Under the pieces are notes generated by a model. That model was not told where the DNA came from, did no database searches, and worked only from the letters and a program-made list of their open reading frames with translations. This document shows positions 3,301 to 56,300 of a stretch of 64,000 bases of DNA, piece by piece. The position numbers were made by a program, and so were the translations under genes. Source of the stretch: Mytilus edulis (lineage: Eukaryota). The stretch covers positions 23,064,001 through 23,128,000 of the forward strand of contig NC_092355.1 of NCBI RefSeq assembly GCF_963676685.1. Direction: 5' to 3'. The stretch's first letter is position 1, and every line of letters starts with the position of its first letter.

Positions 3301-6300
3301 TCACCCACTCACAGTGCTCCTACTATACCTTTTTTCCAAAATGATAGTCATTGTTGTTTTCAGAATAATTCTGAGGGTTTCTAAAACTGTACTGTCACTG
3401 TCATGAAATAGAAGTTCCTTTGTTATATAAGTTCCAAGTTTTTCTCTGTGCTACATATACATCATTGAAAATTTGGAGGAAAAATAATCTTTATGCTATC
3501 CTATTTTATAGGTATTTGATGGACTAATTTAACTGATAGTGATTTGTGATACATTAATTAGTGTAAATTTGGATGAAGAATTATATATGCATACCCTATT
3601 TTATAGGTATTTGATGGACTAACTAATAGTGATTTGTTATTGGTCACCTTGAGAGGTGTTGTGAGTGGACAAAGAGTAGTACAGTCAACGTCCAACAAGA
3701 TGATGGTATACTTCTATACTGATGGCAGTGTTGTTTATAATGGTTTCAGGGCTATTTACACCACAAACATGGAGCGTAAGTTAACCTGAATACAATCGTT
3801 GTATTCCACTTATCTATGATTACTTCATTAAAATCTGAATGCACAGACAAAGAAAAATTAAATAATTTTTTAAGTTTTAATTTTTTTACCATGAGTCCTA
3901 TTTATAATTATTTCTATTTAAATCACATGCTACATTTCTTTAATTTCGAGCGTCACTGACGAATCTTTTGTAGACGAAATGCACGTCTGGCGTAAATATA
4001 AAATTTTAATCCTAGTATCTACCTAGTACGAGTTTATATGCTTTTGGTTTTACTAAAATTTTCAAAGGTGAAATTGTTCTGAAGAGCACCCATTTTTTGG
4101 AGGAGCCTCAGACAGACTACAAGAATAGGTAGTGACTGATTTGTTGTTTACTTTCAGATTGTCCTATAGACCAGGTGCAGTGCTCTATGAGTGCATCAGA
4201 TTGTGTATCTGTGTATAAACTGTGTAATGGTTATACCCAGACTGTGTGTTGTTTTCTTTCAGATTGTCCTATAGACCAGGTGCAGTGCTCTATGGATGCA
4301 TCAGATTGTGTATCTGTGTATAAACTATGTAATGGTTTAACCCAGATTGTGTTATTTATTTCAGATTGTCCTATAGACCATGTGCAATGCTCTATGAGTG
4401 CATCAGATTGTGTGTCTGTGTATAAACTGTGTAATGGATATCCAGACTGTGCTAATGGATTTGACGAACAGCATTGTCTAAATTGTAAGTTATTGTATAG
4501 ATATGAGGACCTGGATGGGGTTTATAACAAAATAGAAAGTAATGGGACTAGATTACATAAAAATAGGGGGGGGAGGGTGCTGATAGAGAATAATGGGCCA
4601 AAGATATAAGATATAGGAAACGATGGATAAAAATATATTATGAAAAGAGAAAAATTACCATTAAGATTGGAGGACTCCTTATATGAGTTATTACCCTTGT
4701 TTTTGTTTATTATAAGTAAACTATATACAGTATGGGTTTTTCTCATTGTTGAATGGATGCCTTCAAAAATATTTAACGATATAGAAATGAAGACCCCTCA
4801 TTCAGACCCTCAGATGTGGTATTATTAAAAGAGGAAGTGTTGTATATGTAAATGAAACAGAAATCCAACAACAACACTACAAGAACCATTATAGAGATTT
4901 AGAGGTTAAATATTGTCATCAATAATTGACAAATTTCTTTTAACAAATTGTGCCTGACCCTAATGGGCAGTCAAGGTTGATAATACTTTTCACATTTGTC
5001 AGACGTTTTCTTGTTTCTGATACCGTTTGACCTTGAGTGGTGTATGCTCAGCATGGCAAAGCATTCTTGCTAGTTTTTTCCAGAGCTGTTTTGACATATC
5101 TGATAAAGAGAATTATTTTATAAAAGATTATTGAAAATGTTTGTGTTGAGAATTATTGTGCAAATAATTGGAAAGTATCATTGGGTGATGTCCACATTCC
5201 AGCTTTTAGACCTCTGTGTTTATTTATTGTTGATTCATTATTATTTGTTGGATATATAAAAAAGAAGATGTGGTATGATTGCCAATGAGACAACTATCCA
5301 CAAAAGACCAAAATGACACAGACATTAACAACTATAGGTCACCGTACATCCTTCAACAATGAGAAAAGCCCATACCGCATAGTCAGCTATAAAAGGCCCC
5401 GATAAGACAATGTAAAACAATTCAAACGAGAAAACCAACGGCCTTATTTATGTAAAAAAATGAACGAAAAACAAATATGTAACACATAAACAAACGACAA
5501 CCACTGAATATACAGGCTTCTGACTTTGGACAGTGAATTTTGGGTCCTCAATGCTCTTCAACTTTGTGTTTGTTTGGCTTTTTAACTATTTTGATCTGAG
5601 CGTCACTGATGAGTCTTATGTAGACGAAACGCGCGTCTGGCATATAAAATTATAATCCTGGTACTTTTGATAACTAACTACATACATAAATAATGTTAGC
5701 GGTATCCCAACCCTCCCCTAACCTGGGACAGTGGTATAACAGTACAACATAAGAACGAACTATAAAAATCAGTTGAAAAAGGCTTTTTTTGTGGGTACAA
5801 GGTAATCCTGAATTTCAATGTTCAACGAACTACAAATTTCATAGACGTGTATGCAGACTTTTGCAAGACCACGAAATTTAATATCATCGAAAGCGTAATT
5901 TTTTTTTCAATCCACGAAAATTGGTACCCACGAAAATAAATAAATGATTCTACAGTAAGTTAATTACCAAGACAGATAATGGTCAATTATTTAATGTAAT
6001 AATGCAATAATGTTTTAGATACAACACTGACTAGTACCCAAAGTACACCATCAGCCAACGCTACCACCATAACGACCACACTGCTGCCACACAATGCCAC
6101 TTATACGACTAGAATACCTACTACTCCTGTCGCTAGTAACATAGGTAAGGCATTCTAATATAAACATAGAGTACTCCTGTATATCAAATTATCTACTGTA
6201 AATTCAGCAAAGCAAATAAAGCAAAGAACCTGACCCATTGTGTACTCTTTATTTCACAATCCAAGATGGCAGTATACAGTTAATCTACTGTGGATTCATT

Positions 6301-9300
6301 ATTGTTTGTTGGATACCAATTTTCGTGGGTTTCGTGAGTACAGGTCAACCACAAAATTTGTGGCACAAATTCAAATGTTCGCCAATTTACAAATTTTATA
6401 TAGGCCTTGTTTGCATAGACTAGCAAATTCATGAAATTTAATGTCCACAATAATGTAACTTTTCCTCAATCCATGAAAAATTGATACCCACAAAAAATAA
6501 ATGAATCCACAGTTATCTACCTTAAACTGGGTTTGTTTAGGAAGAAATCAGATTTCATTATATCCTTTTCAAAAATTTACATTAGTTTAGCAAGGAAAAA
6601 ACGTAAATATTTGGTCCATTTTAATAATTCCACTTTCACAAGTCTAGAAGAGATACTTAATACATAATTTGTCGTAAAAATTATTTTTTGTAGAATTGCG
6701 GCTTGTTAATGGATCTAACTGTTTGGAAGGAAGAGTAGAAATAAAAATAAATGGAGTATGGGGAACTATATCTACATATAATGCACCATTTACTACAAGA
6801 GAAGCTAGTGTCATCTGCAGAGTGTTAGGATTCAGGTGAGAGTTATAGATTTACTATCTGGGAGGCTGGTGTCATCTTTAATTTTTATATTAGGCGAGGC
6901 TAGCATAACAGTTGGTTTCATTTGAGGTTTTACTTTCCTACAGGCTGGCGTCATCTATAAAACTTGGTGTCAGGGGAGACAAGTGCAATCTGTCATCTAA
7001 TAAATATTGGTTTTATGGCGTAATGGGAGAGCTCACCGTTAGAAGAGCAGGCTTCATCTATAAACAAATATGTTCTGGACACGATTTCCTACCTATTCTT
7101 CCCTTAATTTCTGTTTTGTTAAAAAAAAAATTTGAGCCTTGGTGGCCGAGTGTTTTAAGTAGGTTGTGTATTTCACTCTAATCTTAATTGACTAATACTG
7201 CCAGTTTTCCTGCAATTTATGTTGTGTTTCTTTCAAGCATCCAAGCTTCCTCCATAGATATATAACTGGCAGTTATTTTAAAGCCACTGGGCTCAAAGTG
7301 GCATTAAATACAAACTTCAATCAATAAACAAATATACTAATCAGCAAATTTTCATTTTAGTGGAGAAGATGCAATACCATATCAGTATGGATATTTTGGA
7401 CAAGCAGATAGCACAGTACCTGTATGGTATACCTATTTGTATTGTACTGGTTCTGAATCAAGGCTGGAGCAATGTTCAAAACAAAAATATGCTGTTCTTA
7501 GCCATGCCTATGATGTGGGCGTCAGATGCCAAGCAGGTACGTCTGCATGCATACACAAAATAATATGGATTCAATTTTTAGCTCATCGGGGCCCCTTCGG
7601 GCCCCATGTGAGCTTATGCCATCACTTGGCGTCCGTCGTTTGTCGTCGTAAACTATTTCAAAAATCTTCTCCTCTGAAACTATTGGGCCAAATACCTTCA
7701 AACTTTAACTAAATGGTTCTTAGGGTACCTAGTTTATAAATTGTATCCGGAAGTTTTGATCCATTGACAAACATGGCCACCATGGCTAAAAATAGAACAT
7801 AGGGGTCAAATGCAGTTTTTGGCTTATATCTCAAAAACTAAAGCTATTAAAGCAAATCTGACATGGGGGTAAAATTGTTCAATTGGTCAAGATCTATCAG
7901 CCCTGAAATATTCAGACGAATCGACCAACCCATTGTTGGGTTGCACCCTCATGAAAATATTTTTCTGAATTTTTTCTGAACTCGATGCTGAAATTTTACT
8001 GAACACATTCAGTAAACCCTTTTCTTAAAAATGCCTGAATTTGGCACGTTCCAGCAAGTTTTCAGCACATTTTCAGTAAAAATTCAGCAGTACGTTTTCA
8101 GTAAATATTCAGCAATATTCAGAAATAATTCAGCATTAATTCTGAATTTTTCTGAACACCTTGCTGAATTTTACAGAATCTATTAAAAACCTTTTGCTTA
8201 AAAATGTCTGAATTTGGCACATTCCAGCACATTTTCAGCAAATTTTCAGTAACAATTCAGCAAGTTATTTTCAGTAAATATTCAGCAATATTCAGAAATA
8301 ATTCAGCATTAATTTTGAATTTTTCTGAACACCTTTCTGAAATATTCAGAACCTATAAAAAACCTTTTGCTTAAAGATGGCTGAATTTGGCACATTCCAG
8401 CAAGTTTTCAGCAAACTTTCAGTTACAATTCAGCAAGAGTTTCAGTAAATATTCAGAAATAATTAGTATTACTTCTGAATCTTTCTGAACAACTTGCTGA
8501 AATATTCAGAACCTCTTAAACACCATTTTCTAAAAAAAACCAGCTATAATTTAACCCGCTCTAGTTTTCAGAAAATTTTCTGTTAAAGTTCATCTAAGAC
8601 TCTAAAGGTAAACTTTTTAGCATTTCTTTCAAAAATGTTCAACAAACAAAACAATATTTAAGCAAATATTCAGTAAAAATTTGAATTAATCTATACTCAG
8701 CCAATATTCAGTCTTCAGCTATTGTTCAGGATCGGGTTCAGACCATTTTCAGCTTTAGCTTACATTTTTCAGGAAAGGTTCAGATGATTTTCAGTTATAA
8801 TTCAGGAAAGTTTCCATTGGTATTTAGACAATATGAGCTTTTTAATATTCTGTCTGAAAGACACTATTTATCCAAAACAAATAAACATTATTTAAGAAAT
8901 ACAATGGTGTCATATGTGAAGTAGAATAATTAGTTGTGTCTTTGTCTTTTTTATTATTGCTTTTTATTTTGTGTCTTATATAGTTGCAATCAGATCAGTC
9001 AAGCCTTTTACAACTGATGATTAGTTTGTTATGTTGTGACATCAATGACCCAGCATTGTGACATAAGAAATTTATGAGAAAGTGGACACATTTTGAAGTC
9101 GGTTATACATAATACAGTATAGATTTTGCCCATTTTAATCTTTAACTGACCAGTAATGACCGTTTATTATATCTCTGGGTTTTTTGTTTTTTTTTATCTA
9201 TGAATTGTTTGCTCAGCATCAATCATGCCACATCTAATTATTTTTATATTTTGTATAATAAACTTATAATTGTCCCAAGTGAAAGCTTCCATGCTGCTGT

Positions 9301-12300: not shown

Positions 12301-15300
12301 AGATGTACATGTTTAAGTATTCATATTAAACTAAACAAACAATAAAACCATTTCATTCATGTATCATAATTTCTCTCGTAAGTTAAATTACGTTTAAAAT
12401 AATAATTAAAAGTTACGCATATTTCTAATAAATAGTACACAATGTTTTCTCTCTTTAAATAAGTTTTGATATAATAAAAAGATAGTATACATAAAAAGTT
12501 TCTTACCAACTTTGATCTGTCTAATAAAATAATGTGCATCCGTATGTTATCAAAATAAAGTCTAGACGACGAAGCGCACGTCAAAGGCGTAACGTCATAA
12601 AACAGAAACGGGAAAATGTGTTGTTCAAAAGAGCGCAACGTTACATTAGCGCTTTCATAAATAAATAGTAAAAACTGTGTTTCTTATTCTTACAAGAATA
12701 AATGAATATGTTAGTTAAACATTTAATAAATAATAAACTTATATTTAAAATTTGAATATTTCAAATCTTACAGTCCACTAAATATAGAATATGATAGTGT
12801 GAGTGGGGCATCTGTGTACTGTGGACACATTCTTGTTTGTATTATTTTCAGAAGATTTTCAGTATTCTGTCTGAACTGTTCAGCATCTGGCAAATCTGTT
12901 CATATAAGCACTTACAGCTGTTCTGAACAGTTCAGCTTTCTATCATTTCAGAAAGTTTTTTTTTAGCTGTTTTGAACAATTCAACACTGTCTGAATAGTT
13001 CAACACATTTTCAGATGTCTCTCTGAAAAATTAAGCAAGTATTTATTCTGTTCAGAATGATTTCAGTATTGTTTCTGAACATTTCAGGATCTTGAAAATC
13101 TGTTCAGAAAGTTTTCAGGGCTGTTCTGAAAAATTCAGCACTGTTCAAAGATATCAAAAAATTTTCAGCATAGTTTCAGATGTTTGTCTGAGGAGTTCAG
13201 CAATAACTGAACGTTTCAGATGTTTGTCTGAGGAGTTCAGCAATAACTGAACAGTTCAGATTATTTTCAGCTTCAGTTCAGCGATGTCTGAATTTTTCAG
13301 CACAGTCTGAACTTTTCAGAAAATGTTACAGCACTTTTTCAGCAAATCTGAACATTCCAGTAAGTCTTCAGTATTTGTTCAGAATTTGGAAAAAGTGCTT
13401 CAGCACGTTTTCAGATCCCAAAATTTGGTTCAGCATGCATTCAGCTAGGGTCCAGAACCTATTCAGCAAAACTCAGCAAAAATTCAGACATTCTTTTTCA
13501 TGAGGGCTGCTACTAAATTGGTAGTTTTAAGGAAATTTTGCAGTTTTTTGTTATTATCTTGAATATTATTATAGATAGATATAAACTGTAAACAGCATTA
13601 ATGTTCAGCAAAGTAAGATCTACAAAAAAGGTAATATGACCAAAATTGTCAATTGACCCCTTAAGGAGTTATTGCCCTTATAAGACCATTTTACACAATT
13701 TGTTCATCAAGTTTGCTAACATTTAAAAATCTTCTCCTGAAACTGCTAGGCCAAATACCTTCAAACTTTAACTAAATGTTCCTTAGGGTATCTAGTTTAT
13801 AAATTGTATCCGAAGTTTTGATCCATCGACAACCATGGCAGCCATGGCTAAAAATAGAACATAGGGGTAAATGCAGTTTTTGTCCTATATTTCAAAAACT
13901 AAAGCTTTTAGAGCAAATCTGACATGGGCTTATACTGTTCAATAGATCAAAATGTATCAGCTCCTGAAATTTTCAGATGAAACAAACAACCATTGTTGGG
14001 TTGCTGCCACTGAATTGGTAGTTTAAAGAAATTTTGCAGTTTTTTGTTATTATCTCAGATGGTGCCATTAAAACAAAATACATATATGGTTTGGCGATAT
14101 CTGGCCACAGCTTTTATTCATAATATGATAGATTCATACAATATATAATATATATATATAGATAGATAGACCATAGACCCATGTATATGTAGATAGATCT
14201 ATGGTCGGTTACCCGAAGATAATATGGCAACCAGGTAGATAGATAGATGTGAAGATAGATATATATGAAAATGTAAAGATGCACCGTGGGATACACTGGT
14301 GCTTTAAATTTAGAAAACACCGTGGGATACACAAGTGTAGTCTGTATTATCCAAAAACCTAAAATTTCATAGTTAACATTAAGATTCTATGCAGCGAATT
14401 CTGCCATTTACGGGAATATATTTATGATGCTCAAAGTTCAAATAAAAGTCACTTTTCTCAACAGCAAACAAGTTAACATCATTAGTCAAATCTGTATCAT
14501 CACTATCACCGACACAAACCTGAAAAATAAATACAAAAGAGCAGTATCTTGTTCTATAAAAAGGAGTGGGAGGGCGGGTTTTCAAGTTTACCGCTTACAA
14601 AATTTAAACAGCTTGCTTGCTGCGAGGAAATTCTAAAAAGGACTTAATGACGTCACAGAATATATCGTCACACATGTTGGGTAAATCTAAAACATGAAAC
14701 ACAATCCGTGAGTGGCCCCGGCGATAACTGAATTTAAGTCTATTAACTTAAATTCTATTATCTCAGATGGTGCCATTAAAACAAAATACATATATGGTTT
14801 GGCGATATCTGGCCACAGCTTTTATTCATAATATGATAGATTCATACAATATATAATATATATATATAGATAGATAGACCATAGACCCATGTATATGTAG
14901 ATAGATCTATGGTCGGTTACCCGAAGATAATATGGCAACCAGGTAGATAGATAGATGTGAAGATAGATATATATGAAAATGTAAAGATGCACCGTGGGAT
15001 ACACTGGTGCTTTAAATTTAGAAAACACCGTGGGATACACAAGTGTAGTCTGTATTATCCAAAAACCTAAAATTTCATAGTTAACATTAAGATTCTATGC
15101 AGCGAATTCTGCCATTTACGGGAATATATTTATGATGCTCAAAGTTCAAATAAAAGTCACTTTTCTCAACAGCAAACAAGTTAACATCATCAGTCAAATC
15201 TGTATCATCACTATCACCGACACAAACCTGAAAAATAAATACAAAAGAGCAGTATCTTGTTCTATAAAAAGGAGTGGGAGGGCGGGTTTTCAAGTTTACC

Positions 15301-18300
15301 GCTTACAAAATTTAAACAGCTTGCTTGCTGCGAGGAAATTCTAAAAAGGACTTAATGACGTCACAGAATATATCGTCACACATGTTGGGTAAATCTAAAA
15401 CATGAAACACAATCCGTGAGTGGCCCCGGCGATAACTGAATTTAAGTCTATTAACTTAAATTCTATTATCTCAGATGGTGCCATTAAAACAAAATACATA
15501 TATGGTTTGGCGATATCTGGCCACAGCTTTTATTCATAATATGATAGATTCATACAATATATAATATATATATATAGATAGATAGACCATAGACCCATGT
15601 ATATGTAGATAGATCTATGGTCGGTTACCCGAAGATAATATGGCAACCAGGTAGATAGATAGATGTGAAGATAGATATATATGAAAATGTAAAGATGCAC
15701 CGTGGGATACACTGGTGCTTTAAATTTAGAAAACACCGTGGGATACACAAGTGTAGTCTGTATTATCCAAAAACCTAAAATTTCATAGTTAACATTAAGA
15801 TTCTATGCAGCGAATTCTGCCATTTACGGGAATATATTTATGATGCTCAAAGTTCAAATAAAAGTCACTTTTCTCAACAGCAAACAAGTTAACATCATCA
15901 GTCAAATCTGTATCATCACTATCACCGACACAAACCTGAAAAATAAATACAAAAGAGCAGTATCTTGTTCTATAAAAAGGAGTGGGAGGGCGGGTTTTCA
16001 AGTTTACCGCTTACAAAATTTAAACAGCTTGCTTGCTGCGAGGAAATTCTAAAAAGGACTTAATGACGTCACAGAATATATCGTCACACATGTTGGGTAA
16101 ATCTAAAACATGAAACACAATCCGTGAGTGGCCCCGGCGATAACTGAATTTAAGTCTATTAACTTAAATTCTATTATCTCAGATGGTGCCATTAAAACAA
16201 AATACATATATGGTTTGGCGATATCTGGCCACAGCTTTTATTCATAATATGATAGATTCATACAATATATAATATATATATATAGATAGATAGACCATAG
16301 ACCCATGTATATGTAGATAGATCTATGGTCGGTTACCCGAAGATAATATGGCAACCAGGTAGATAGATAGATGTGAAGATAGATATATATGAAAATGTAA
16401 AGATGCACCGTGGGATACACTGGTGCTTTAAATTTAGAAAACACCGTGGGATACACAAGTGTAGTCTGTATTATCCAAAAACCTAAAATTTCATAGTTAA
16501 CATTAAGATTCTATGCAGCGAATTCTGCCATTTACGGGAATATATTTATGATGCTCAAAGTTCAAATAAAAGTCACTTTTCTCAACAGCAAACAAGTTAA
16601 CATCATCAGTCAAATCTGTATCATCACTATCACCGACACAAACCTGAAAAATAAATACAAAAGAGCAGTATCTTGTTCTATAAAAAAGGAGTGGGAGGGC
16701 GGGTTTTCAAGTTTACCGCTTACAAAATTTAAACAGCTTGCTTGCTGCGAGGAAATTCTAAAAAGGACTTAATGACGTCACAGAATATATCGTCACACAT
16801 GTTGGGTAAATCTAAAACATGAAACACAATCCGTGAGTGGCCCCGGCGATAACTGAATTTAAGTCTATTAACTTAAATTCTATTATCTCAGATGGTGCCA
16901 TTAAAACAAAATACATATATGGTTTGGCGATATCTGGCCACAGCTTTTATTCATAATATGATAGATTCATACAATATATAATATATATATATAGATAGAT
17001 AGACCATAGACCCATGTATATGTAGATAGATCTATGGTCGGTTACCCGAAGATAATATGGCAACCAGGTAGATAGATAGATGTGAAGATAGATATATATG
17101 AAAATGTAAAGATGCACCNNNNNNNNNNNNNNNNNNNNNNNNNNNNNNNNNNNNNNNNNNNNNNNNNNNNNNNNNNNNNNNNNNNNNNNNNNNNNNNNNN
17201 NNNNNNNNNNNNNNNNNNAATGTGTAAGATGACTATGTACACTGTAGGAGTGAAATTATTATAATGTAAACGCCCATAAATACGAAGCAAGAATAACTGA
17301 ATCAACTCAGGCAAACGCAAATTAAAAGAATGACTTTGAGAACCCTATATTAGAGTCTACTATAAATCCATGTATGCAGAAACAAACATTTAGTATAACA
17401 GCAGCAACCACTCTCTCTCTCTCATCTTAGGTTTGAACCAGGTTGCCCACATGAAACCTTATTTCCATTAAAGGACAAGGTGATTTGAACTTGGATATCA
17501 CAAGAAAGCCTATATTAATCAAAGTAAACCTGGTTAAAGTTACCTGTTAGGACATCCAAAAGTTATAAAAAATGACCTGTGTTACACAAAAAACAAAGCA
17601 CAAACAAGTGCTTAACAACATCTAGATACCCTCATAATTAAAAGCATAACATTTCAAATAGTCCCAGCATTCATGCTAACTGATACTGAAATTCAACCGG
17701 TACTATAAATCATAATAAATAACAACCATAATTTGGAATCAACTGTTGCTAAGCAACCAGTAGGGCCAATGATTTATGCAAATGAAAAGTTCCTCGTAAT
17801 GCACCAGCCTAAAATAACAAACAGCACCTAAACATACAGTGTACGATACTCGTAAATTGGGCAACTTCTAGAATTCCCACGATGAAGATTACAATACATT
17901 CTAGACTAGTATATATATAAATTAAAGCTGTTTTCGACACCTAAATACTTAAGATTTTTAACGGTGGAGTAGACTGCAAGACAAGCTGTAAATAATTACT
18001 TAGTTTGTAATAGATTTGCTAATATTACATGTACATATCCGTTTAACTGCTACTGACAAATTTAAATTACACAAAACTTAAAATAGTCTCATTTAAAAGT
18101 TGATTACAAGATAAACCCATTGCACCCCTTTTTTCCCTTAATATATATATATACATGTATAGAAAAAAAATCAATAATAATGAAAATGTTCAAAACCCTG
18201 AGACTGATTTGTAGGGTTTGTGGCAAACAGCAAAAAGAAGTCTGTCCTAAATTAGTGATCAATAAATATACACATCTATAAACTTTTGTCCTTTAAATTG

Positions 18301-32300: not shown

Positions 32301-35300
32301 GGTCAGGGACAGAAGACTTGATGATAAATAGTTGGTGTGTGGTTGTTTGCTGATGAAATGTATTGAAATTATAATGAGTTACAAGATTTACATTTATGTT
32401 GATGTTTGAGGATGGGGTGGAAAGCTCTGACAAAAAAACTAATGTACCGGTATATCAAAAAGGATAATATTTGGATTACCAATGAGATAACTATTTATGA
32501 TTTGATTTCAGATAATGTTTTGGTTGCCAATGGATCACTAGGAGAGGACGGGGATACAGCAATGGTAGAATTTCCCAGTATCACCATATCCTCCACCATA
32601 TACTTACATTTCAAATATATGATAGGCAATTGGAACAGTGCTCAAAACCTGATGTATTCCATCAGTAAAGATGGAGATTTTACATCAGTTATGACAACGA
32701 GGCCAATACTAGCTGCATGGCAGTCATACTGTGTCAGTGTACCATCTCCAGGGGAGGTAACTCTGAAATTTAAGGCTGACAAAACTCAAATGAATAACCA
32801 TACTGATGTATCTATTGATGATGTTGTGTTGTCAGCTAAAACCTGTCCAGGTAAGTTATTACTGTAAATTGGGTTATTTTCTGGTTAGGTTTTGCTCAGA
32901 GTTTGTGCCTTAGATAGGACAGCCGAAAATCTTTGCTATGTTCATTATTCATTTTTATGGTCTTTAAGGTGGTACCCAACACTTTTGCTAAAATTAATTT
33001 GGCTCGTTTAATTTTCATAAAATTTTGACAAAGTATTTACTTTGACATTTTAACAAAAATATAAAAATTTCAAAACTTTTGAACCAACCGTTTTGTCAGA
33101 AAAAATACACTGGTTATATAGCAGTTTGACAAACACTAATTTTGATCATTGAGAAGCTTAATATTTCCCTAACAACACAACGTAATTAAAACGTTTAGCT
33201 GATTTTACAGAGTTATCTCCCTGTAGTGTTGGGTACCACCTTAACAACGAAATTAAAATCCTCCTGAAGAGTAATTTTTCACAGATAAAGGTCTATATAA
33301 GACACATGTTTAAATTGAAGTCTACGTAACAATTTGATATAAAATTAACAAATACAAAAGCACGCAGCTAAAAGTGTCAGGTGATGCTTTATAGTTTCAC
33401 ACATATTGACCCATCACAGACCTTTTTCAGAGACACAATCATCACCAGTCATTAAAATTCTATGAGTTTACTACATTACTAGACTCAATTTGGGTCAAGT
33501 TGAGCGAATTGAATTTACAAAAGAATCACCTTTTTACAATGTTTGACATAAAAGGGATGTGAAATACATGAAAACAATTTATTTACTTAGAGGTTGACAA
33601 ATTTTAGATTGAATGTAGAGGCCCAAGTTGATAGGAATGTATTTATATAAACTTATAAAAATATTTACAGTTAAATCTTTGTCCTGTGATTTTGATGACT
33701 CTGCCGTATGTGGATACTACATGTCTGATGCCTGGAAGAGAAAAGAACATGACAACAGGATGGGAGGTAAGCTTGATAGGGGGTCTCATTTGGGGGGTTC
33801 TGATTTTGATGACTCTGCCGTATGTGGATACTACATGTCTGATGCCTGGAAGAGGAAAGAACATAACAACAGGATGGGAGGTAAGATTGATAGGGGGTCT
33901 CATTTGGGGGGTTCTGATTTTGATGACTCTGCCGTATGTGGATACTACATGTCTGATGCCTGGAAGAGGAAAGAACATAACAACAGGATGGGAGGTAAGA
34001 TTGATAGGGGGTCTCATTTGGGGGGTTCTGATTTTGATGACTCTGCCGTATGTGGATACTACATGTCTGATGCCTGGAAGAGGAAAGAACATAACAACAG
34101 GATGGGAGGTAAGATTGATAGGGGGTCTCATTGGGGGGTTCTGATTTTGATGACTCTGCCGTATGTGGATACTACATGTCTGATGCCTGGAAGAGGAAAG
34201 AACATAACAACAGGATGGGAGGTAAGATTGATAGGGGGTCTCATGGGGGGGGGGGGGGGGGGGGGGTTCTGGTTATGATGACACTCTGCCGTATGTGGAT
34301 ACTACATGTCTGATGCCTGGAAGAGGAAAGAACATAACAACAGGATGGGAGGTAAGATTGATAGGGGGTCTCATTGGGGGTTCTAATTTTGATGACTCTG
34401 CCGTATGTGGATACTACATGTCTGATGCCTGGAAGAGAAAAGAACATAACAACAGGATGGGAGGTAAGCTTGATATAGGCTTTATGCAAATTATACGCCT
34501 GTCTAAATATAGAGAATACTGACGATTCATTTATTTTTGTGGGTACCGATTTATTGGATTAAGCAAAACTTACAAGTTTGTTGAATTCTTCATACAGTCC
34601 TATAAAGGAAAATATGTTATTTGTTTGACATTTAAAGGAGAAGGTTCACGAAGGGTTAAAATCAGCCCTGATTTTTTTGTGTTTTTTAAATCGGGCCAAG
34701 AAATTACAAATTTCACTCAAAAATACTTGTGATAATACCATTAAGACAAAAATATTTTTTTCTGACACTTTCCTTTACAATTTATGGAGCTATGACCCCT
34801 TCAATAAACATAATTTGTATTAAAAGGTCAATTTTGGTACTTTTTCTCATAATTTTAATTGTTTTTGGCATAATTAACCTTGGCCGCCATCTACGATCCA
34901 AAAAGTTTTTATATTGATGAAATCTATATCAAAATTGGGATCTTTTGGTGACAACACATTTTGGATCGTAGGTGGCTGCCAAGGTGTTTCTAAAGCTTAT
35001 AGGTCTGAAAAATGCACAAAATCATTATATTTTGACAAAAGGTCAAAAATGGGCTTAATACTTTGGAGAATATTATGTACTCTTATGAAAAGAACTGATA
35101 TATTTAGCATATAGACTTTTGAAATATACCCATTTACGAACCAAATTGAGACCTTTTTGGTGTTTTATGATAAAGTTGATATTTTAGGCCATTTTGTGCC
35201 ATAAGGGAACCTTGTCGTTTGTGGTTCATCTGTACCTTCGAAATATACAAAAACTGGTATCCAACGAATCATAATGTATACACAGTAGACTATTTAGTGA

Positions 35301-41300: not shown

Positions 41301-44300
41301 TAAAATACAATACAGTTATGTCCTAAGTGAAGCTACATGTTTGGTCAGAATTGGCCTTATAATCTCAAGTACAGTCAAACCTGTTATTAAGTATAAATGT
41401 ATTTTTGTTAGGTCAATCTCTTCTTGTCCCTCTATTGTAAGGCTTTAATAGGCTGATAAATATAAGCAGTTGGAACTAAATAAGAATTATCTCACTTATC
41501 CGCTTATGATTTGAAATGATATTTGTATTAAATATGGTATCTGTTGGTCCTAGAGCATGCTTTTTTCTTTTAATGCAATAAAGAAGTTTTTTTTTTCTGC
41601 ACTTTTGGTAATTTTATCTATGTTTTTGAAGTTTGAGCATTTTAATTTTTTTGACAATTTTATAATGATTTTGAAAAGTTGCATTATTTTATTTATTGAT
41701 AATGTTAAATGCAGAGGTAGATGTCACAACTCCATATGCATGGCAGTGGCAGACCACAGAAGAAACGACTGCTGAATATCATCCTGGACAAACTATGGAT
41801 TTACAACCAGAAAATAGACCAACTACTGATTTTGAACCAGGAAATGGACCAACTGCTGAATCTGAGCCAGAAAACGGACCAACCGCTGAATCTGAACCAG
41901 AAAATGGACCAACCGCTGAATCTGAGCTAAGAAGTGGACCAACTGCTGAATCTGAACCAGAAAATGGACCAACCGCTGAATCGGAGCCAGAAAATGGACC
42001 AACTGCAGAATCTGAGCCAGAAAATGGACCAACTGCTGAATCTGAGCCAGAAAATGGACCAACTTCTGAATTTGAGCCAGAAAATGGACCAACTTCTGAA
42101 TCTGAGCCAGAAAATGGACCAACTTCTGAATCTGAGCCAGAGCATGGACCAACTGATTCAGAACTCACGACATATGCTGAACCAGAAAATAGACCAACTG
42201 ATTCAGAATTCACTACTAATATGGAACCAGAAAATGGACCAACAACAGAATTTGGAACAACATCAATGCCAAGATCACCATTTAATGGTAAGTGACATAA
42301 AAGTTAAAACAACCAAATTACTTTTAATGCAAGTATGTTGATTTATTACCTTGAAAATTTCCAAACATTAGATTTAGCATATCAATCCTACCATGTTTAT
42401 GTCTTGACTGTGACATGTAATACACAATTTATGTATAGATTTAAGAAGATGTGGTATGAGTGCCAATGAGACAACTCTCCATCTAAGTCACAATTTATAA
42501 AGGTAAACCATTATAGGTCAAGGTACAGCCTTCAACATGGAGCCTTTGCTCACACCAAACAACAAGCTATAAAGGGCCCCAAAAGTACTAGTGTAAACCA
42601 TTCAAACGAGAAAAACCAACGGTCTAATCTATATAAAATGCTAGCCTACTGTACATCAGATTCCTAGATGTTCTTGTGAATTTACAGTAATACGTTATAC
42701 TGGCTTATATCTTTTAGATGAATGTTTTAACCATAAACCATACATATGTTTTAGTGAATTTACAGTAAAACTTTATACTGGCTTAAATCTTTCAGGTGGA
42801 TGTTTTAACCATAACACATACATATGTTCTAGTGTATTTACAGTAAAACCTTATACTGACTTATCTTTTAGAGGTTAGTTGGATGTCTTAACCATAACTC
42901 GTATATATTTTTAGTGAATTTACAGTAAAACCTTTTACTGACTTGTATTTTTCAGATGGATGTTATAACCATAACACAATTGTATGTTCTGATTATTTTG
43001 GAATGAACTTTACATCCTACCCAAATGTCTTTGGTCAGAATGATTACTATGAAGCAGTAAATCAATGGCACAGCTCTTGGGCAAGATTCCCCTTTGATAC
43101 CTGTGGTATGGTGTATTCACACACAATGTGTGCTTTATTATTCCCTACCTGTCAGAATGGTACCACTCAACAGATCTGTCGACAAAGTTGCCTGGGTATG
43201 TAGTAAGGATGTTTGCCACTATGTTTCAAAACAACAAGCTTTTTAAAAAGTAAAATCACAAAAATACTGAACTCCGCTGAAAACTCAAAACAGAAACTCC
43301 CTAAGAGATAGTCATAAAATGATAGTATATTGATAAAGGAACTAAAAAAGCAGAATTTTGAAGGGTTTGTGTCAAGGATCCGGAAATTTTTTCATCTAAT
43401 TTCGGTCATTTTCATACAACTTAAAAGTTGATGCCCCTTTTCAAAAAATGATTGTCAAAATCACATTACTGCATGAGACTCATTATGATTATGCTCATAC
43501 TCGATCGTCATGTTCGTAGCATCAACAAACTTGTTTCACTGTTGCATCGCATTTGCTTCATGATTTGTCCTACCATTTTCCAAAAATCGATCAAGAGCAA
43601 TTAAGGGAAGGCAACAGTTTAAAAATAAAATGATTTTAATGACTCAAAACGATAATATTCTCAGTTATGTTTCTTTCGATCCTGAAGTCAAAATTCAAAC
43701 CGGATGTAAAGCGACAATACTAAAACGAACAATTCCGGACTCATTTCCGGGATTAGTTTTGTTTACCCAAATCACAGGAAATCATCGGCTTTTTAATATT
43801 TTACCTTTAATAGTGCAAGAATATTAATTAAAATAGTTGCACTAGCTTTATTTAGGATGAAATTATTTTAAATTTACGATTAATTGTCTAAATCTGTGGA
43901 AGAGAATTTCAAGCATGCGTATTACATAGTAAACAAAGCACGTGTGTTAGAAGTTAAAAAAAAAAAAATTCTACGTATATTAAACCAAGTTTTAATTTAA
44001 TTTTAAATCATAATTGACAATTGTCTGACCTGTTGGGTAATTAAATAATGAAGCCAGTTGGTATGGAATTTTTATTTCTTTATAATAATAGTTTGGAGCT
44101 TGTGATTAATTGCCAGGTGTGAATTAAAAACACAGGTAAAGAGATTAATTAGCAATCATTAGCCAATAGCTCCCAGAGGCATTAATATAGTTATTAGGAG
44201 GGCCCTCAGGATTATAACACTTTATTGGAGTGGCAGTTTAATTACAGGAAGTTGATAGATAACAAAACAAAAATATGTTCAAAATGGCGATTTTGAAAGT

Positions 44301-53300: not shown

Positions 53301-56300
53301 TTGATCAATGACATGAACATGATTCAAAAGCAACAAATTATAATTAATTAGGATATCAATGAAGTTTAAAACTTGGAATTTCGTAAACTGCATTAAAATG
53401 ACTTTAACATAAAATGGAGATTTGACAAATATTGATGTGAACTGTTGACCCAGTACCAGGATGTTTTAACACAGAATAGGTAACCTGTTGGAAAATTAAA
53501 AATTCAAGAGTCAAAATTAGGTTATATGAAATTTGGAGTTTTGAATTTTATGACATAATGACATAAATCGTGTTGCATTTTCCTCAAAATTGATAGTATA
53601 TCACATTGCAAAAATTACTGAATTTGCAGTATAATATATGAAAACTGACACATATAAAATAAGAAACTAAATGTTTATATGTATATATTTTTTTAATTTA
53701 CAGAGCCTTTCCCCTATAGTATATGTGAATTTGATAAAAAGTGTCCATGGGATATAGAATGCTCCACCAGAATAGCTGATCCAATACCATTCCAATGGAC
53801 ATGGGCAGGTTTTAACACTTCTTTGTCAGGTAATTTTTAATATTTTAGGTAATATATGTTACGATAATATGATACTAAACCCCTAACGGGAGGGATTGTG
53901 CTTGATTTTCATATGATGTAGACATAATCTTTCAATCAGTTTAATTGAGGTCTGGAGCTGGCATGTCAGTTACTGCTAGTAGCATTTATTTGTTATTGTC
54001 ATTTTACTTAGTTTCTTTCGTTACCTATTCTGACATTTGACTCAGACTTTCTTTGATTTTCTTGCTGTGGTGAAGACCCATTGGTGGCCTTTGCCAGTTA
54101 TTTGCTCTTTGGTCGGGTTGTTATCTCCTAGACATATTTCCCATTTCAATTCTCAATTTATTATAGTATGTAAAAACAATTAAGACACCTCTGTTCTTAA
54201 GAAGCATGCAAAAAGAGAATCATAGTTAACTGATGTTGTACACTTTAATTTATGCACTGTCATATTTTGAGGATGAATCACATTATTTACTTACTTGCAA
54301 AATCTTCCGATACACTTATTTTAGTCTGCTTAGTTCTAGGATCTTCTAGTGCTCTGTAAAATAAAAGTTTATCAGTCAGCACAGTTTCCAGATTTACCAA
54401 TTTGAACAAACTCATCATAGATACCAGGATTAAAATTTTATATTTACGCCAGACACAGGTTTCGTCTACAAAAGACTCATCAGTGACGCTCTAATAAAAA
54501 TGTTTTAACAGGCCAAATAAAGTATGAAGTTAAAGAGCATTGGGAACTTTGATGATTCTTTATTTTGTGTTAAGTCTTTTCTATCCTATTTTGCTGCATT
54601 TTAATATTACATTGTACTGTTTCACTTATTCTTATTGCTTTTTTTACACTTTGTTGTAACAAATTATTTTTTACCTCATTTAGATGCTGGTAAATATCTA
54701 ACAGCAGATGCATCATTTGGAAAACATGGTGACAAGGCCAAATTTACATTGCCACTCAATGCAACAACCAGCCACAATCTGAAATTAAAGTATAGAAATA
54801 CTGGCAGCAGAAATGATAGCTCTAGTGGATCTTTACAGGTATTTTAGTATTTGATTTGATTTGATTTTTTGCGTTTTTAACGCCACTTTTAAGCATAGCC
54901 TTTGGGCTATTACATGGTGGCCTGTTTTTATTGGTGGTTGAAGCAGAAGTGCCTGGAGAAAGACTTTTTTTGCCCCTATCATAGCGGAGGGGGCATGAAG
55001 AGTTACTATAGATTGTCTGTACTTACGTACCAAAGTTGAATTCCATTCTCTAACCTTAACCTTAATCAAATGTTTTGAGACTTATACACAGTGCTTATTA
55101 CAACAAAATACAGATCAACTTTAAATTTTGGGTGTGTCACTTTAAGTGTTATGGAGTTATGCTCCTTTACAAATGCAAAAAATGCTGAATTTTTTGTTTC
55201 CCTTCTTTAACTTAAGTTAGCCTTGTTCCTTTATAACTTTATATTTGTTATGTCTCTTTATCACTTTATATTATATATTCCAAATAATCATGTTTATTTT
55301 GTTCAAGGTGAATTTGAACGAAAATGGAGTAACAAAACAAATATTCATGAAAGACAATCTGGACACCTATGGATCATGGGAATCAGCTTGTGTGCCAATG
55401 TCAGAGTTCACCACAGGGGAGATAATCAATGGTCAACTGGAATTTGTTGCCACTAGAGGGAGCTCATATGCTAATGATATTGAAGTAGATGATGTTGAAC
55501 TGTTAGGAACTGAATGTCAACGTAAGATTGTACTTCTATTGTCGTAACTACAATCCTGATCCCTTTTCCCTGAATGTGACCTAAAAAAATCAAAACTTTT
55601 ACTCTTTGAATTGATCCTGTGAGTTAAACAGGTTAAAAACAGTCATTTTAATCTCTTTTGTCCTTTGAATCGATCATGTGAGCAAAACAGGTTTAAAAAC
55701 AGTCATTTTGATGTGATGAAAAAAAAGCCTCATAATAACAAAAAAGGATCTGTAGGTTTTTCCAATTGCAACTTTTAACACTGCAATTCTTTTAATCGGC
55801 ATAGCGATTGCACATAGGTCATACACAATACATTTGGATTTAAGTAGAGGTATATATATTGTAAGATCCATTATTATGTACATCTCAGAGTCTGTATAAG
55901 ATATATTAAGAATTTTATCACGGTTTTGGTTACAAAGCGAAAGAAGCACATCATATTAGAATATTCTATTAAACCCTTTGAGACCCTCTTTTTTAACAAA
56001 GATCTTCCTATTGTAGATTTTGCATCATGTGATTTCCAGTCGGCCACATTCTGTCATTACAACAGATTGTCAGAGTCACGTTTTGCTTGGAATTGGGGAA
56101 CATACAATCTGATACAACTCTATTCTTCTATGGCACAGTATGTACCAAGGGTAGATCATACTGAAGGTACCAGTTCAGGTAAGTTTTTACTGAATCCCTT
56201 ATTCGAGAATTATATAATTAAACGATTTGTGAACAAAACAAACAGACATAATAGGTAAAAGTGTCAAAATATAGAAGTATGAATTCATAAAGTATTAATT

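Follow-up and report, generated by a model that had tools for sequence, protein, structure and literature searches.

Does a hammerhead ribozyme that lies in the sense orientation in an intron act on the expression of its host gene, or is it a passenger, and which enzyme wrote it there? The question is raised by a motif at 5600-5643 of the window, that is, the whole stretch of 64,000 nucleotides of Mytilus edulis DNA analysed here (contig NC_092355.1), to which all positions refer. Published work is cited for what the available parts of each paper state.

The motif exceeds chance, and its placement is ordinary given the copy number of its family, since the 1.37 Gb genome holds 12,590 intact hammerhead cores, or about 0.6 per 64-kb window. 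A search of the window with 4,227 Rfam families returned a single family match, RF00163 (Hammerhead_1), on the forward strand at 5600-5643, with 35 bits against a gathering score of 34 and an E value of 5.2e-5. A first-pass annotation, made from the letters alone, had recorded an intact CUGAUGA/GAAA core, a GUCU:AGAC helix II, a palindromic helix III and a cut after C5637, all at the right coordinates (Table 1). It had also called the motif a minimal type I form, which does not hold. In the minimal hammerheads of Penelope-like elements (PLEs), helix II has 7-8 pairs and is preceded by an extra unpaired base, and helix III is small or absent (PMC4209133); here helix II has four pairs and the extra base is missing. 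The motif is of the canonical type I. It has the conserved CUGANGA, GAAA and UH elements, a 4-pair helix II closed by the G10.1-C11.1 pair that defines this class (PMC4209133), here G5613-C5625, and a short helix III with a palindromic loop. Only helix I departs from the canonical form with its six pairs, all present in the array copy of the family: four contiguous pairs remain, followed by a C-A mismatch and a G-U pair.

Table 1. Positions in the window of the ribozyme, the retrozyme copies, the interrupted repeat and the neighbouring host-gene features.
Feature	Position	Strand	Basis or detail
Type I hammerhead ribozyme	5600..5643	+	Rfam RF00163 and motif positions
Helix I	5600-5605 with 5638-5643	+	C5601-A5642 mismatch
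Core CUGAUGA	5606-5612	+	Sequence
Helix II	GUCU 5613-5616 with AGAC 5622-5625	+	4 pairs
GAAA	5626-5629	+	Sequence
Helix III palindrome ACGCGCGU	5629..5636	+	Monomer: 2 pairs and 4-nt loop; dimer: 8 pairs
Predicted cut site	after C5637	+	Motif positions
5'-truncated retrozyme copy	5534..5676	+	Monomer positions 252-355 and first 39 nt of next monomer
39-nt tail past cut site	5638..5676	+	Stops at the family's usual insertion end, before the Naiad-like stem-loop
Three extra letters, 3' junction	5677..5679	+	Absent from array and empty site
Left part of unrelated dispersed host repeat	5254..5533	+	95% to L093
Right part of same host repeat	5680..5785	+	2 nt lost at site; further 17 nt missing 16 nt downstream
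Older decayed copy, second retrozyme subfamily	3948..4017	+	84% to monomer; in previous intron 3776-4364
Third copy, antisense to host gene	54414..54542	-	81% to monomer; helix III altered
LDL-receptor class A exon	4365..4484	+	PF00057, E 1.2e-7; + strand RNA reads; between the two sense copies
Host intron	4485..6018	+	GT-AG, 1,534 nt, phase 1 at both ends; splice signals and frames
Threonine-rich exon	6019..6144	+	RNA contig X15 record 7 starts at 6019
SRCR exon	6694-6835	+	PF00530; RNA contig joins the 6019-6144 exon to it

The reading as a retrozyme fragment is borne out. The copy at 5534-5676 is identical in 141 of 143 letters (98.6%) to a natural array monomer (G000:C11, L008/L009), the two changes being at 5568 and 5642. 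Metazoan non-LTR retrozymes were taken here to have monomers of 150-450 bp with low GC, arranged in tandem arrays with one hammerhead each; the family has 355-bp units with a GC content of 0.39, one hammerhead per unit and tandem arrays, whereas the locus holds only 143 nt. The tandem arrays that the annotation proposed to look for were indeed recovered by a genome search, which gave 2,021 candidates, 355-bp arrays being among the 40 that were scored.

The copy interrupts a dispersed host repeat. The pattern of the empty site, with both flanks joined, has 2,389 matches in the genome, and in all of the 100 that were listed two letters stand between the flanks. The insertion has put 146 nt in place of 2 nt, and comparison of the flanks with the empty site found no target-site duplication at 5534-5679. 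The extra letters at 5677-5679 probably arose when the reverse transcriptase slipped during priming. At another 3' junction of the family (L002), the last letters of the tail are irregularly repeated several times, which resembles repeated priming slips. DNA contigs from four runs end in the flanking repeats on both sides, with loose ends at 5254 and 5785, and no second haplotype of the locus was found in the assembly. The host repeat (5254-5785 of the window and about 17 further places) is very abundant in DNA and RNA. RNA joints 5533-5693 were seen, of which other copies of the repeat could be the source.

The locus thus holds one ribozyme rather than the two that would release a monomer, its nearest partner being 1,650 nt off and defective, and the Naiad-like stem-loop discussed below is absent from the copy. 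For lack of a second ribozyme and of the hairpin, it is unable to free a monomer or to be recopied. Like the domesticated intronic ribozymes, namely the amniote intronic hammerheads and CPEB3 (PMC7761336), it is a self-cleaving motif in sense orientation in an intron. However, those are rare and conserved, whereas the window copy is young, one of thousands in a dispersed family, nested in another repeat and marked by a destabilising change.

The host gene encodes CUB, LDLa, SRCR, MAM and Fz domains and is expressed. Stranded RNA and splice signals agree with the annotation that the copy lies sense in an intron: in three stranded RNA runs, which carry another organism label, exon reads have only the mate direction that marks + strand RNA, with depths of about 1-6x in most exon bins for X22 and X24 and of 0-0.5x for X23. 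The cut site at C5637 lies 381 nt upstream of the intron acceptor. Splice signals and reading frames point to a junction 4484-6019, although no spanning read is among the reads listed. Several other features of the window were observed. The acceptor and the start of the LDLa exon are present twice more in tandem at 4156-4364; these additional copies lack donor sites and have an RNA depth near zero, in contrast to the complete third copy, which reads do cover. Within the host gene, part of a MAM exon is tandemly amplified in units of 81 bp at 33660-34560, and the repeat at 41750-42230 is coding, with much Glu, Pro, Asn, Gly and Thr. A 708-bp tandem repeat occupies about 14100-17350 and contains a stretch of N near 17,100.

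Retrozyme RNA is abundant in cells, as had been supposed. When 6% of each run was sampled, the repeat was about 840-2,800 sense reads deep in all three raw-read runs, some hundreds of times the depth of the host exons. The position equivalent to 5642 is a G in 789/843, 984/1,010 and 2,221/2,272 of the sense reads of the three runs, and the reads extend into array sequence at both ends; hence, the RNA reads over the repeat come from other copies. The reads span the cut site and no pile-up of read ends is listed at 5637, a weak test because repeat reads dominate and the runs carry another organism label. Reads that cross the cut site without such a pile-up fit circles or uncut arrays.

The family base at 5642 is a G, the exact 41-mer with this letter having 6,496 copies in the genome against 97 for the version with the A of the window. 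A5642 breaks a helix I pair, leaving four contiguous pairs instead of six. At 37 C, the constrained active fold of the window copy is 15-, 500- and 30-fold less likely than that of the array copy for three lengths; these folds are of secondary structure, apart from tertiary contacts and magnesium, and they give even the array copy a low active fraction although a mussel clone does cleave, so that only the ratio counts. An alternative hairpin that locks the core reaches a probability of 0.90-1.0 in four context lengths of the window copy, against 0.55-0.81 in the array copy. By this prediction, the window copy would mostly adopt a hairpin without catalytic activity, and it probably cuts too rarely to affect splicing.

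It may nevertheless be imagined that the copy, as a monomer, sometimes cuts itself and that the insertion does slight harm and awaits loss, with no regulatory role. The core is intact and helix I keeps four pairs, self-cleavage of a mussel retrozyme clone with a single ribozyme proceeds at about 0.1 per minute (PMC7229834), and in Xenopus a depletion of retrozymes from introns is reported (bioRxiv 2026.07.22.740005). Yet the locking hairpin and the short life of the intron weigh against such cuts, and we regard this possibility as unlikely for the present locus. More generally, given the Xenopus report and the up to 20-fold loss of mRNA caused in zebrafish by an engineered fast intronic hammerhead (PMC11856399), some intronic retrozyme copies may be mildly harmful.

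A further proposal of the first-pass annotation was that the intronic ribozyme would be cut either by pairing in cis with a second sense copy 1.65 kb away or in trans by retrozyme RNA, so that retrozyme levels would tune host splicing. Its intact core, its sense orientation within an intron and the great excess of retrozyme RNA over the host exons are what this model calls for. The window holds two sense copies and one antisense copy, and the distance to the second sense copy is as described, its cut site C3987 lying 1,650 nt upstream. In a double hammerhead, each core cuts the site of its partner (PMC4209133). For two array copies, this fold is the minimum free energy (MFE) structure, at -29.5 kcal/mol, and the intermolecular helix III has a probability of 0.62-0.73 at 37 C and of 0.03-0.43 at 18 C. 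The copy at 3948-4017, however, has lost the G10.1-C11.1 pair to an A10.1-C11.1 mismatch (A opposite C), and its helix III palindrome is broken. With this partner, the intermolecular helix III has a probability of 0.00 in all four co-folds and in the fold of 3900-5720, and an exon separates the copies, which belong to different introns. The cis dimer was accordingly rejected.

Pairing in trans fares better in part. The double-hammerhead fold is the MFE structure of a window and array 44-mer pair. At 37 C, the window copy reaches 0.70 as enzyme, or 0.38 with flanks, and 0.18 as substrate, or 0.00 with flanks. Pairing in trans would thus be possible for isolated pieces, but A5642 is predicted to weaken the window copy, more as a substrate than as an enzyme. 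The absence of a pile-up at 5637, weak test as it is, points in the same direction. Moreover, slower intronic hammerheads leave splicing intact, fast ribozymes being the ones that abort it (PMC2995048, citing Dye 2006 and Fong 2009), and the copy is young, unconserved in kind and one of thousands. Regulation of host splicing by this ribozyme is unlikely, and the full model, with cis or trans cutting and tuning by retrozyme levels, is given very little credit here. The copy is, with high probability, a neutral young passenger of its intron.

How the copy was written can be addressed at the level of the family. Ends were mapped for 60 loci, the first separate ones of contig C1 among 100 listed exact matches, with no other selection; two pairs of these loci have common flanks and so are not independent. 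The 3' ends are fixed, 56 of 60 falling at +34 to +50 past the cut site and 50 of 60 at +38 to +45, whereas the 5' ends are scattered, with 2 of 60 in the +34 to +50 interval. Identity to the template declines over +39 to +45, as expected from short pairing with AT-rich targets. In 21 of the 60 loci, the copy exceeds one monomer plus tail and keeps the same 3' end. A crude search of the 60 loci for target-site duplications gave only short or distant matches. The 5' ends are no more frequent at the cut site than at one control position, with 8 matches against 8, and a cleaved linear monomer was discarded as the main template on this ground. Because the copies cross the cut site and their 5' ends are not enriched there, the template must have been uncut or religated. 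This 3'-tail signature is the one linked to internal initiation by a Penelope-like enzyme in the PAc Poseidon element, in which reverse transcription starts internally and leaves a tail (PMC11167929).

A fixed 3' end and a variable 5' end are what a non-autonomous partner of Naiad would show. One locus from the genome search (L136) has a 1,053-codon ORF with an N-terminal GIY-YIG domain and CxC and DKA motifs, the diagnostic set of Naiad (PMC8557442), and 7 of the 44 loci scored have full-length stop-free ORFs. The start of L136 aligns with the stem-loop found at +48 to +105 of the retrozyme, with a score of 44 against a maximum of 36 in 200 shuffles. Among 50 loci from the GIY-YIG search, hairpin scores of at least 40 occur only in Naiad loci and in separate retrozyme copies. 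The stem-loop opens the intact Naiad elements and directly follows the point where retrozymes have their 3' end. In an alignment of nine sequences, pairing reaches 94% and 98% in the two outer stems, against 37-45% for slid controls, and only 80% in the apical helix. Three compensated pairs distinguish retrozyme from Naiad in the first outer stem; they represent a single event, which separates two lineages and is counted repeatedly, and 114 of 500 shuffles reach the observed number. Of 21 Naiad loci, 19 have their end 1-9 nt ahead of the stem (L154 does not cover the end and L157 gives no match), and retrozymes have theirs 3-10 nt ahead of it, so that the structure is placed alike relative to the 3' end in both. 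In L136, a 26-nt piece of retrozyme tail was also noticed on the reverse strand at about 4886-4911 (G000:C5), within the Naiad 3' untranslated repeat.

These observations suggest that the reverse transcriptase of Naiad probably copies retrozyme RNAs, although the shared hairpin may reflect descent from Naiad rather than present use. Besides Naiad, the comparison of helpers took in about five other PLE families. Another candidate would be a hammerhead-bearing element of the Penelope/Poseidon type, with a C-terminal GIY-YIG domain, which would move the family while the Naiad-like hairpin was simply inherited. Several such families here have intact ORFs more than 99% identical, and the retrozymes of Xenopus resemble the pLTRs of such elements (bioRxiv 2026.07.22.740005). 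However, no sequence common to retrozyme and Penelope/Poseidon-type elements was found in the 40 loci from the GIY-YIG search, of which 20 were extended; what matches the monomer there are separate retrozyme copies in the flanks. Their best hairpin score, 33, is within the shuffled range, and their outer ends reach TA microsatellites in all aligned copies, against about 3 of 56 retrozyme ends, counted by eye, and 0 of 19 Naiad ends. A helper of this kind appears quite improbable.

The Penelope/Poseidon-type loci, in which hammerheads were sought by pattern, are of some interest in themselves. L115, L116, L117 and related loci form three young families with hammerhead-like motifs after ORFs more than 99% identical. 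They have one or two fixed 3' ends that run into TA repeats, and in two of the three families a separate ORF of about 420 codons lies upstream. Hammerhead-like repeats of yet another family, the third, were seen at L121:1105 (+) and on the reverse strand of L128 at 1495; their 8-nt helix III differs and forms a palindrome in L121.

If Naiad is the helper, the following course may be envisaged. The Naiad protein would bind the retrozyme hairpin and would nick AT-rich DNA. Copying would begin 3-10 nt before the stem and would run back across the uncut or religated ribozyme site of a template that could be a circle or an uncut multimer. At the window locus, the enzyme would have fallen off after 143 nt. 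The copy itself is transcribed at a low level as intron RNA. As to the form of the template, an uncut linear multimer transcribed from an array, with arrays growing by unequal crossing-over, would account for the genomic data, which need only an uncut junction, and PAc uses unprocessed RNA in vitro (PMC11167929). But circles are the main form of the RNA in mussel tissue (PMC7229834), and the loci longer than a monomer plus tail keep the same 3' end. We consider the linear multimer a less likely template, yet one to be taken seriously; given a Naiad helper, the circle is moderately favoured. Taken together, the copy at 5534-5676 is best described, with fairly good confidence, as a young 5'-truncated copy of a 355-bp mussel-type non-LTR retrozyme, probably written by the reverse transcriptase of Naiad and probably neutral for the host gene. 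More tentatively, and with slightly less than even chances, mussel retrozymes would be ribozyme-circularised parasites of the hammerhead-free Naiad and would carry its start hairpin; the Naiad enzyme would start about 40 nt past the ligation junction and copy the circle repeatedly into the chromosome.

Several known systems can be compared with this one. In Mytilus galloprovincialis, a non-LTR retrozyme has a type I hammerhead in low-GC repeats of 350-390 bp, close to the present monomer, with two related ribozyme subfamilies, thousands of copies and abundant RNA, as here (Cervera and de la Pena 2020, PMC7229834); the match rests on this description rather than on a sequence comparison, and the locus differs in that it holds less than a monomer and a single ribozyme, mismatched in helix I. 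In the available text of that study, PLEs are named only as candidate helpers, and a fixed 3' end or start signal is not described. Naiad (Craig et al. 2021, PMC8557442) shows 5' truncation, partial tandems, a fixed 3' end with a 30-40-bp tail and no clear target duplication, all as in the retrozyme, with which the Naiad of this genome has the stem-loop in common. On the other hand, the retrozyme is non-coding and has a hammerhead, the Naiad unit has none, and an additional side stem is present in its hairpin; the available parts of the Naiad paper do not mention the hairpin. In PAc Poseidon (Frangieh et al. 2024, PMC11167929), the start is internal, at a stem-loop downstream of the hammerhead, targets are AT-rich and genomic ends mark the start sites, as in the retrozyme. 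Unlike the latter, it is an autonomous lizard element of another clade, and circles or parasite RNAs do not feature in the study as far as its available text goes. Vertebrate retrozymes (bioRxiv 10.64898/2026.07.22.740005) are non-autonomous PLE derivatives, hence of the same general helper class, and 42-44% of the Xenopus copies are intronic. That case is built on frogs, from co-occurrence and similarity to pLTRs; molluscs, a Naiad partner and a start signal are absent from the parts available.

Thus, the retrozyme family, its circles and a general link with PLEs are already known, and Naiad as the probable helper and the hairpin are new within the literature searched. No paper naming Naiad as a retrozyme helper or describing the hairpin was found in that search, which covered the available main text of open-access papers.

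The locus itself is a routine fragment, and it is the result at the level of the family that matters. In the available text of the mussel and vertebrate studies, the helper enzyme of animal retrozymes and the role of circles as transposition templates are left open (PMC7229834, bioRxiv 2026.07.22.740005). These questions can now be put to a direct in vitro test, since a helper family with intact genes has been named, the signal is delimited to 60 nt and the start position is predicted. In addition, with thousands of near-identical ribozymes in introns, it can be tested across the genome whether selection acts against natural intronic cleavage. If retrozymes are indeed parasites of Naiad, both the helper and the signal of animal retrozymes would be named, and a circular RNA would be shown to undergo target-primed rolling-circle copying.
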